Assembly (NCBI GenBank): GCA_965205855.1
Contig: OZ242184.1
Location: forward strand, 160,001-224,000
DNA from: Thermodesulfobacteriota bacterium
Lineage (GTDB): Bacteria > Desulfobacterota_D > UBA1144 > Nemesobacterales > Mycalebacteriaceae
DNA: 64,000 bases
Direction of reading: 5' to 3'
Below, piece after piece: positions 54,729-55,663 of the stretch; positions within the stretch are counted from its first letter, which is position 1, and the number at the start of each line of letters is the position of its first letter. Made by a program: the position numbers and the translations under genes. The notes below the pieces were generated by a model. That model did no database searches and had not been told where the DNA came from. It saw only the letters and a list, made by a program, of their open reading frames with translations.

Positions 54729-54977
54729 CTACTTGTGGAGGGTCGTATAAGGGAGAAGAGCCATAAACCTCGCCCGTTTTATGGCGGTCGCGATTTTTCT
54801 CTGCTCCTTTGCGTTCAAGCCCGTGCCTCTTCTGGAGATTATCTTTTTTCTTTCGGTTATGAATTGAGAAAGTGTGTCGGTGTCTTTGTAGTCAATCCTC
54901 TTGCCCTCTTTGGCAAGATTGCGGACTTTTTTTCTTTTCTTTCTTTGATTTTGCCTTCTTTGCTTATGGCTTCTCAT
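54729..54977 (-). CDS. rpsR: 30S ribosomal protein bS18 (Cys-free form)
   Basis: IDYKD..L..FITER.KI..RR.TG...K.QR....AIKRAR.MALLPY pattern. Confidence 0.97.
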
Positions 54978-55663
54978 TTTCTTTCCTCCGCTTTATTGTG
55001 GGGCGGTTTTCTTCTCTCAGACCAGTCGCCGATTGACACATACAACGCGCCGTATCCCCCGTGCCGTTTCTCAGCCGCGCGCCAGTCTCTTATTTTAACG
55101 GAATTCTCCAGCCATTTTTTTACGGTAAAGTTCGGCTCAGCTCTTTTTCCGCAAACTACAAGCCCGATTTTTTTGCCAGCGCCGTAAAGTTGGTCAATAA
55201 ACCCGACCAGTCGTTTCTCCGCCTCTTCTCCGTCCAGTTCGTGCAAGTCCAGTTTTTGTTCCGCGGGAAACTCTTCGGGTGTGTCTGCCTCAAATCCGCC
55301 CTTTTTCAGAGAGAATTCCCTCTGTTCCCAGTTGGGCTCTATTTCTTTTCCGTAAGCGTGGTCTTCATCCACAGAAACCGTTATAAACCTCATCACTTCG
55401 CTTTTGTGGAAACCCAGATGTTTTTCAACCGCCACTGGAGCGTCGGCAAGCGCCTTGTATGTGAGGATATGGTATATCCCGCGTCTGTAGCCCTGTATTT
55501 CATAGGCCAGATCACGTTCGTCCCACTTTTCGTTTCTGATGGTTTCCCCGCTGTTTTCTTTCAATGCAGTGGTAATTTTTCCCTGAATAACGGAGAGTTC
55601 GCCACCTTCAATGTCGGGTCTTACCAGATAAAGGGTTTCGTAGAAATTAAATTTATCAGCCAA
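54974..55663 (-). CDS. rpsF: 30S ribosomal protein bS6 fused to a C-terminal Smr (small MutS-related) nuclease domain
   Basis: The N-terminal part ([17 protein letters not shown]....G.Y..VMRF) is bS6. The C-terminal part ([14 protein letters not shown]...[22 protein letters not shown]) is Smr. TTG start at 55663, 6 nt after AGGAGG. The stop overlaps the rpsR ATG. Confidence 0.92.

Follow-up and report, generated by a model that had tools for sequence, protein, structure and literature searches.

Smr-domain proteins sense collided ribosomes in both bacteria and eukaryotes, and the catalytically competent Smr nucleases are of the SmrB, Cue2, and NONU-1 type. In eukaryotes, Smr is recruited through ubiquitin-binding domains, and in every described case, to our knowledge, a separate module brings the Smr domain to the ribosome. 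A 64,000-nucleotide (nt) stretch of DNA from an uncultured Thermodesulfobacteriota bacterium (positions 160,001 to 224,000 of contig OZ242184.1; hereafter, the window) was found to encode an Smr domain inside a ribosomal protein gene. There, ribosomal protein bS6 and an Smr domain formed a single open reading frame (ORF), rpsF-smr. Coordinates given below are positions in the window, and amino acid (aa) numbers refer to the 229-aa fusion protein.

Three bacterial Smr architectures have been described, each with its own ribosome-binding module (PMC10897456). Escherichia coli SmrB has an N-terminal hook helix that binds uS2, and the Smr domains of Bacillus subtilis MutS2 and of Bacteroidetes KOW-SMR proteins are brought to the disome interface by a KOW domain on uS10 (PMC10897456). 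The parts of the E. coli SmrB study drawn on here (10.1101/2021.08.16.456513) place the SmrB Smr domain between the two 30S subunits of the disome, where it contacts h26, h40, uS11, and bS21 on the stalled ribosome and uS2, uS3, and uS5 on the collided ribosome. In the same study uS4 of the collided ribosome was touched by uS11 and bS6 of the stalled one, and a second structural study likewise reported that bS6 of the leading ribosome contacts uS4 of the queueing ribosome (PMC10897467). The bL9 protein of the stalled ribosome was also described as part of the E. coli disome interface. Functionally, an SmrB mutant with DLH changed to ALA was reported to equal a deletion, and a change of the central GxG residue to GAG, which left the glycines and the His unchanged, was reported to have no effect; an E. 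coli Smr domain lacking a hook or KOW, such as SmrB(88-183), was reported to fail to bind ribosomes (10.1101/2021.08.16.456513).

The rpsF-smr ORF was uninterrupted and stood in the usual place of rpsF. It had a Shine-Dalgarno (SD) sequence, a TTG start codon (55663..55661, minus strand), and an ATGA overlap with rpsR (rpsF-smr TGA at 54976..54974 and rpsR ATG at 54977..54975, minus strand), all as described in the original prediction (Table 1). Both domains named there were recovered with Pfam above their gathering scores: PF01250 at 60.6 bits and PF01713 at 43.9 bits. An alternative GTG start at 55699, which gives 241 aa, was used by the database gene call; the 229-aa start is the better one because its TTG, SD, and ATGA overlap were conserved in five of five congeners. 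The genome was a single contig of 1,401,274 bases (98% complete). In a six-frame search of this genome, the sole S6 match and the sole Smr match (44.1 bits) were both in the fusion frame, and the single MutS_V match was in a separate 879-aa frame with no Smr. No further rpsF or smr gene, and no mutS2 bearing an Smr domain, was found in the genome.

Table 1. Features of the rpsF-smr locus. Coordinates are window positions; aa numbers are those of the fusion protein.
Feature	Coordinates	Strand	Evidence and remarks
rpsF-smr fusion ORF	54974..55663	-	229 aa, 26.4 kDa, no internal stop, TTG start, TGA stop
bS6 core, aa 8-96	55376..55642	-	Pfam PF01250 Ribosomal_S6, 60.6 bits (cut-off 27), profile 2-89 of 90
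Acidic linker, aa 99-137, isoelectric point 4.4	55253..55369	-	Alignments and composition
Smr domain, aa 138-210	55034..55252	-	Pfam PF01713, 43.9 bits (cut-off 25.7), profile 1-75 of 77
DxH motif, D139-L140-H141	55241..55249	-	Aligns with E. coli SmrB D99-L-H101
C171-G-K-R174 in the HGxG place	55142..55153	-	Subsequent loop shorter than that of SmrA
Basic C-terminal tail, aa 211-229	54977..55033	-	W214..P220-P221 align with SmrB EEWQPPELP
Shine-Dalgarno AGGAGG	55670..55675	-	6 nt ahead of the rpsF-smr TTG; kept in 6/6 aligned genomes
rpsF 5' leader	55664..55738	-	Near-invariant in 6 congeneric genomes; predicted long helix pairing the SD region
Extended -10-like element TGGTATAAT	55741..55749	-	Upstream of rpsF; read by eye, weak
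rpsR (bS18)	54729..54977	-	Pfam PF01084, 84.3 bits; start overlaps rpsF-smr stop
rplI (bL9)	54095..54715	-	Pfam L9_N and L9_C; acidic C-terminal tail of ~55 aa

The bS6 core of the fusion was 73-79% identical to the S6 proteins of congeners and matched S6 chains in solved ribosome structures. NCBIfam TIGR00166 gave 40.1 bits, just short of its cut-off of 42.9, a shortfall that may be common to the whole lineage. A DNA alignment of rpsF with five congeners showed a common leader, SD, TTG start, S6 core, last codons, and ATGA overlap. The ordinary bS6 genes of the congeners also shared with the fusion the promoter-like element and the gene order hppA-rpsF-rpsR-rplI. The proteins differed between a stub (..VDEDxAxGxE) and the end (NK.EE.K), where the congeners had a domain-free, low-complexity tail of 60-90 K/E/R/P-rich residues and the fusion had the linker and Smr. 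The linker began with ~11 residues that are the stub of the native S6 tail, its remainder included an SmrA/B-like pre-Smr LKKGGF..PEEF, and the final residues of the fusion, NKAEERK, matched the S6 ends of congeners. These alignments indicate that a foreign Smr module, acquired in frame in one lineage, took the place of the disordered, hypervariable C-terminal tail of bS6. Within the stub, D99-E-D-H-A-Y104 (55352-55369, minus strand) fits by eye the acidic-acidic-x-x-x-aromatic pattern of the hook; this likeness is probably due to chance, as the residues belong to the native stub and congeners read DEDQAH.

Tails of S6 were even longer elsewhere in the phylum. In other genomes they comprised 100-190 residues of acidic, Pro-rich tandem repeats (e.g., ..SDEPPQEAAEQVQQ.. 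units), and the repeat-built tails varied in length between close genomes, which makes this a hypervariable ribosomal-protein tail. Nine of ten long-tailed S6 frames elsewhere in the phylum contained no second Pfam domain. In the one-contig genome of relative G065 (G065:C1:1294400-1295800), a frame at 484-1401 (minus strand) encoded 306 aa in which S6 was open into S18, with both Pfam families present. The tail in this frame appeared frameshifted relative to sister genomes, and the frame is either an assembly indel (a small insertion or deletion) or a real S6-S18 fusion.

Every Smr motif quoted in the original prediction was located in the fusion: LKKGGF..PEEF..KLDLHE, LVVCGKR, VKKWL, and HGGYGALYV, with DLH precisely at 55249..55241. 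The two departures from the canonical motifs that it had noted, CGKR in place of HGxG and DLHE in place of DLHG, were agreed upon by HMMER (against YdaL/SmrA), BLASTP (against SmrB), and a 41-row MAFFT alignment that combined the query with 38 of 120 listed enterobacterial SmrA/SmrB matches and with two of the phylum's Smr proteins. The HMMER alignment to YdaL/SmrA was ungapped through helix 1 and strand 2. Two small MAFFT alignments had instead placed Y160-G-A-G163 as HGxG, an assignment rejected on the helix/strand spacing in the models, which argues against it.

The best sequence match to a solved structure was E. coli YdaL/SmrA (3QD7), with fusion aa 115-212 aligned to YdaL 27-131 (E 7.9e-4). 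Using BLASTP against E. coli SmrB, fusion residues 119-211 matched SmrB residues 87-172 with 26% identity over 97 aa (E 1e-4), and identity to enterobacterial SmrA/SmrB proteins was 22-30%. Outside the Pfam domain, the 41-row alignment revealed three features in common with SmrA/SmrB, namely a pre-Smr L-K/R-K/R-G..PE, a post-Smr Trp that was near-invariant (W214 of the fusion), and a Pro-Pro. E. coli SmrB (7QGR) combines the same elements with an Smr domain carrying DxH: a pre-Smr L-R/K-R/K-G..PE and a post-Smr W..PP. The nearest named NCBIfam model, SmrA NF033154 ('DNA endonuclease SmrA'), scored 36.5 bits against a cut-off of 180, and the NCBIfam mutS2 model scored 16.9 bits against a cut-off of 400. 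The uS2 hook was absent, because homology to SmrB begins at SmrB residue 87 and everything upstream in the fusion is bS6; SmrB has an N-terminal hook helix where the fusion has a whole ribosomal protein. The earlier label of SmrA/SmrB-type therefore held as a resemblance, including the LKKGGF..PEEF and W..PP flanks, and failed as a statement of orthology, given 36.5 of 180 bits and no uS2 hook. By sequence, the module resembles an SmrA/SmrB-type protein truncated directly behind the N-terminal extension, and it is orthologous to neither SmrA nor SmrB.

The combination of motifs set the fusion apart from each described system. E. coli SmrB reads HGHG where the fusion reads CGKR. E. coli SmrA/YdaL has LNL, and so no DxH, and keeps HGKG; the fusion is the opposite, with DLH kept and HGxG lost. 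The Smr domain of MutS2 reads DLR and does not cleave, whereas that of the fusion reads DLH, and the fusion has no MutS ATPase, clamp, or KOW.

A single-sequence AlphaFold model was poor (predicted local distance difference test, pLDDT, 38.7) and was superseded by an AlphaFold2 model of the Smr part built from the 41-row alignment. The core of the latter had a pLDDT of 74-84, and the linker (aa 104-130) and tail (aa 217-229) were below 50. With this model as the query, Foldseek ranks 1-10 were all Smr structures. The top match was the Thermus thermophilus MutS2 Smr domain 2zqe (template modelling score 0.90, root-mean-square deviation 1.3 A), and the MutS2 Smr structures 4och, 8r55, and 8qpp were also matched. 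When the model was superposed on disome-bound E. coli SmrB (7qgr_v), the root-mean-square deviation was 1.4 A over 81 columns. In the model, then, the Smr part has the beta-alpha-beta-alpha-beta-beta fold of solved Smr domains. A complex prediction of uS11 with the Smr core scored 0.00, which gave no verdict and is evidence for neither side.

The stretch was contained in six public runs from three studies, and the Logan contigs of four of these runs were compared with the window. Two samples from one study, which may include the source of the assembly, yielded contigs of 77.7 kb (depth 365) and 20.6 kb (depth 160) with 0 differences over 54700-55800 (1101 bases). A 677-nt contig from a second study had 0 differences over 55187-55800 and ran from the S6 core across the linker into the first part of Smr, DLH included. 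Among the four runs, one was blank at 54965-55186 and another covered only 55324-55649; such blanks are uninformative. The reading frame continued across both junctions of the Smr part, with the conserved 3' end and ATGA overlap retained. Read support across the junction, which the original prediction had named as a check, was thus present as exact contigs in two samples and as a second-study contig bridging S6 into Smr; the 3' junction of the Smr part was covered by the first study only.

Among 423 candidates from an index of 5.8 billion proteins, 20 proteins were scored; S6 together with Smr occurred only in the window's own protein, and the other 19 had S6 alone. One of these 19, as named by one source, was the S6 of Candidatus Mycalebacterium zealandia (class Candidatus Dadabacteria). 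In the genomes of relatives, S6 was present in 41 of 41, and a match past query residue 139 was found only in this genome. Across the phylum, 117 of 120 genomes had an S6 match, and the Smr part was covered only in this genome; one other S6 match extended to residue 180 but contained a TGA. The survey of related genomes thus placed the fusion in 1/120 genomes of the phylum and 0/5 congeners. The earlier statement that no S6-Smr fusion had been described agreed with a text search of the literature, which found none; the sequence searches bearing on it are limited by shared words. Smr of any kind was present in 4/120 genomes of the phylum including this one, and in the other three it was a standalone frame of 87-95 residues located elsewhere in the genome. 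The phylum is thus nearly devoid of Smr.

Several sources of the Smr part were considered. The standalone Smr proteins of the phylum lacked the SmrA/B-like flanks and matched at best with a non-significant E of 0.058, and they were rejected as the origin. Stop loss between rpsF and an adjoining smr was rejected as well, there being no smr anywhere in the congeners. The inserted part was typical of the genome in guanine-plus-cytosine (GC) content (0.50), GC content at third codon positions (0.53), and codon usage (73rd percentile), leaving no trace of a recent foreign origin in these measures. A search for repeats around the insertion found no target-site duplication, and all its matches were short and chance-like. 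A word-based search with the Smr part alone returned four candidates, none of which scored, and pattern scans for close Smr relatives gave 156 matches in metagenome contigs and 112 in genome contigs, none confirmed. In the ESM Atlas, the whole fusion protein had no usable match, and the Smr part matched short standalone Smr clusters at 0.76, which is a lead only. The flanking pyrophosphatase was 80-90% identical and S18 was 82-86% identical to those of congeners; the lineage is therefore well separated from its congeners.

Given that this is the only rpsF in the genome, 30S subunits would carry Smr at the platform on a flexible acidic linker of ~40 residues; the presence of Smr on every 30S assumes that the fusion is not processed. 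We infer that the fusion is expressed as a single polypeptide whose Smr part docks at collisions, cleaves, and hands over to tmRNA (transfer-messenger RNA). Upon collision, the Smr domain of the stalled (leading) ribosome would settle into the composite pocket between both 30S subunits. Ribosomes upstream would then run to the new mRNA 3' end and be released by tmRNA-SmpB. In this scheme bS6 would play the recruiting role of the uS2 hook (SmrB) or of KOW (MutS2, KOW-SMR), and collision specificity would come from the inter-ribosome pocket alone. SmrB is a free factor hooked to uS2 of the collided ribosome, whereas the fusion would be stoichiometric and covalent and would act from the platform of the stalled one. 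SmpB, tmRNA (155.5 bits), and bS21 were all encoded in the genome, so that the step downstream of SmrB, tmRNA-SmpB, is also available to the fusion-bearing cell; no DUF3418 (HrpA C-terminal region), NFACT_N (RqcH), or Smr-bearing MutS2 was found in the genome.

Published work on E. coli S6 bears directly on this scheme. Green fluorescent protein (GFP) on the C-terminus of S6 was reported to be tolerated and to partly stabilise a stalling reporter, an effect attributed by the authors to disruption of the SmrB pocket (10.1101/2021.08.16.456513). A bulky domain placed at this terminus is therefore known to reach that pocket. S6-GFP resembles the fusion in having a folded domain at the C-terminal end of bS6; its strain is viable, and the added domain gets to the pocket well enough to lower SmrB action. 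S6-GFP is, however, artificial and inert and blocks the SmrB pocket, whereas the natural fusion would supply the nuclease. The Smr part of the fusion is a homologue of the SmrB construct reported to be unable to bind alone, held ~40 disordered residues from the S6 C-terminus. By analogy, the tethered collision sensor or nuclease of the original prediction is plausible, a reasonable inference that the E. coli S6/SmrB work strengthens. That the fusion is a ribosome-tethered collision nuclease, supplied by the stalled ribosome and feeding tmRNA-SmpB, stands at about even. The fuller proposal of a DxH-competent, built-in collision endonuclease, in which bS6 replaces the hook or KOW to give a fourth bacterial Smr architecture gained by gene transfer into a hypervariable ribosomal-protein tail, is held more tentatively, at a little short of even. 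Compensation for a lost rRNA-maturation nuclease was considered as another role and rejected, as YbeY and RNase E/G were each present in 6/6 genus genomes.

Several points weigh against a collision nuclease. The Smr Pfam score of 43.9 was well under those of E. coli SmrB (77.6) and SmrA (80.3), although it was similar to those of the standalone Smr proteins of the phylum (44.2 and 53.9). HGxG was degraded to CGKR and its loop was shortened in the HMMER, BLASTP, and 41-row MAFFT alignments, and B. subtilis MutS2 is reported to need HGxG for tight ribosome binding (PMC10897456). The fusion was a single-lineage event (1/120 genomes, 0/5 congeners, once in the 5.8-billion-protein index), and so recurrence, the usual sign of a selected function, is missing; nor were sequence variants of the fusion available to test purifying selection. 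The open frame is weak evidence for an Smr function, because coupling to rpsR requires a stop-free, in-frame insertion in any case. Finally, the E. coli hook tethers Smr from the collided ribosome and the fusion would do so from the stalled one, in a geometry that is predicted by analogy.

The degraded HGxG place also suits an Smr domain that stays on the ribosome without cleaving, or with attenuated cleavage, as a collision or RNA-binding sensor or an interface stabiliser like the Smr of MutS2. Catalytic competence is reported to have been lost repeatedly in Smr families, MutS2 using its Smr for binding only (PMC10897456), and a nuclease fixed at every mRNA exit might be selected for weakness. 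The DxH motif, essential for SmrB cleavage, was nevertheless intact, and inactive Smr lineages are described as having typically lost DxH and kept HGxG, the reverse of what the fusion shows (PMC10897456). Nor was an ATPase or splitting partner (such as MutS2 or HrpA) found in the genome to act on a sensed collision. A non-cleaving or attenuated Smr is unlikely, though it deserves serious weight.

It is also doubtful, if far from negligible, that the Smr part is a passenger, that is, a foreign smr fragment lodged in the tolerant S6 tail of a reduced-genome lineage and kept by drift with no role in translation. The domain was complete, gave a confident Smr-fold model, and kept DxH, and the segment begins almost exactly at the end of the ribosome-recruiting hook of SmrB, a cut point that is functionally sensible and would otherwise be a coincidence. 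The rpsF gene is highly expressed and essential, a costly site for a useless addition of 120 aa. A native-like composition and codon usage and the lack of any relative near enough to share words fit long residence with the fold preserved, but an unsampled donor would account for them too. In favor of a passenger, S6 tails in the phylum were long, low in complexity, and freely changing, and without a second domain in nine of ten long-tailed frames. The fusion was confined to one lineage, relatives manage without Smr (present in only 4/120 genomes), and the frame is kept open by the coupling to rpsR.

Release of Smr from S6, by proteolysis of the linker or by internal initiation, to give a small free Smr acting on RNA or DNA is highly improbable. 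The linker was predicted to be disordered and is acidic, which suits a protease site, yet no processing site was marked in the sequence and no in-frame ATG, GTG, or TTG with an SD-like site was seen in the linker by eye. The name of the nearest NCBIfam model ('DNA endonuclease SmrA') points toward DNA, but its 36.5 bits fell far under the cut-off of 180, and E. coli Smr without a hook or KOW is reported not to bind ribosomes (10.1101/2021.08.16.456513). An artefact, in which a chimeric join or an indel falsely joins rpsF to foreign DNA, is very unlikely, the least probable of all: the fusion protein was present once in the protein index and came from one contig, a one-contig genome might hold long-read indels, and G065 has an S6 frame open into S18, but the exact Logan contigs of two samples and the bridging contig of a different study, the in-frame junctions with conserved 3' end and ATGA overlap, and the lack of another Smr gene in the genome or congeners available for mis-joining all stand against it.

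The minus-strand gene order around the fusion was prs, rplY/ctc, pth, the H+-pyrophosphatase gene, rpsF-smr, rpsR, and rplI. On ORF and Pfam reading of the locus, no gene lay between rpsF and rpsR, and hence no ssb or priB, in line with the earlier account. The bL9 protein of the window was 206 aa in total, against 256 aa for the bL9 of one congener. Sequences like TGnTATAAT occurred upstream of rpsF at the same place in five congeners, and a sigma-70 scan returned 0 sites under its criteria, so the -10-like element is weakly supported. The rpsF leader helix comprised 17 predicted pairs with 0 compensatory changes, leaving the structure unproven, and an Rfam scan of 54000-56500, which included the leader, matched no family. 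The leader could serve S6:S18 autoregulation and, if so, would represent a type not yet described. Elsewhere in the window, a type II restriction-modification pair was encoded at 46237-47848 (plus strand), in which a 285-aa N6_N4 DNA methylase overlaps a 260-aa EcoO109I-family endonuclease, and a 438-aa ORF at 48362-49678 (minus strand) matched no Pfam family at E <= 1e-5.

The rpsF-smr fusion belongs to one uncultured marine lineage known from sequence alone, and its HGxG loop is degraded. Within these limits, the fusion, in which a ribosomal protein would serve to recruit an Smr collision module, is of interest to the field of ribosome quality control. The fusion indicates that the disordered S6 tail can accept an enzyme domain, and it raises the question of how cells cope with a nuclease on each ribosome. 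With Smr held covalently in the 30S platform, it would be a natural experiment on whether collision specificity comes from recruitment or from the geometry of the disome pocket. If the reading of a tethered collision nuclease is true, the collision specificity of SmrB-type cleavage would not be made by recruitment, and a nuclease at every mRNA exit site would stay silent until the composite inter-ribosome pocket forms.

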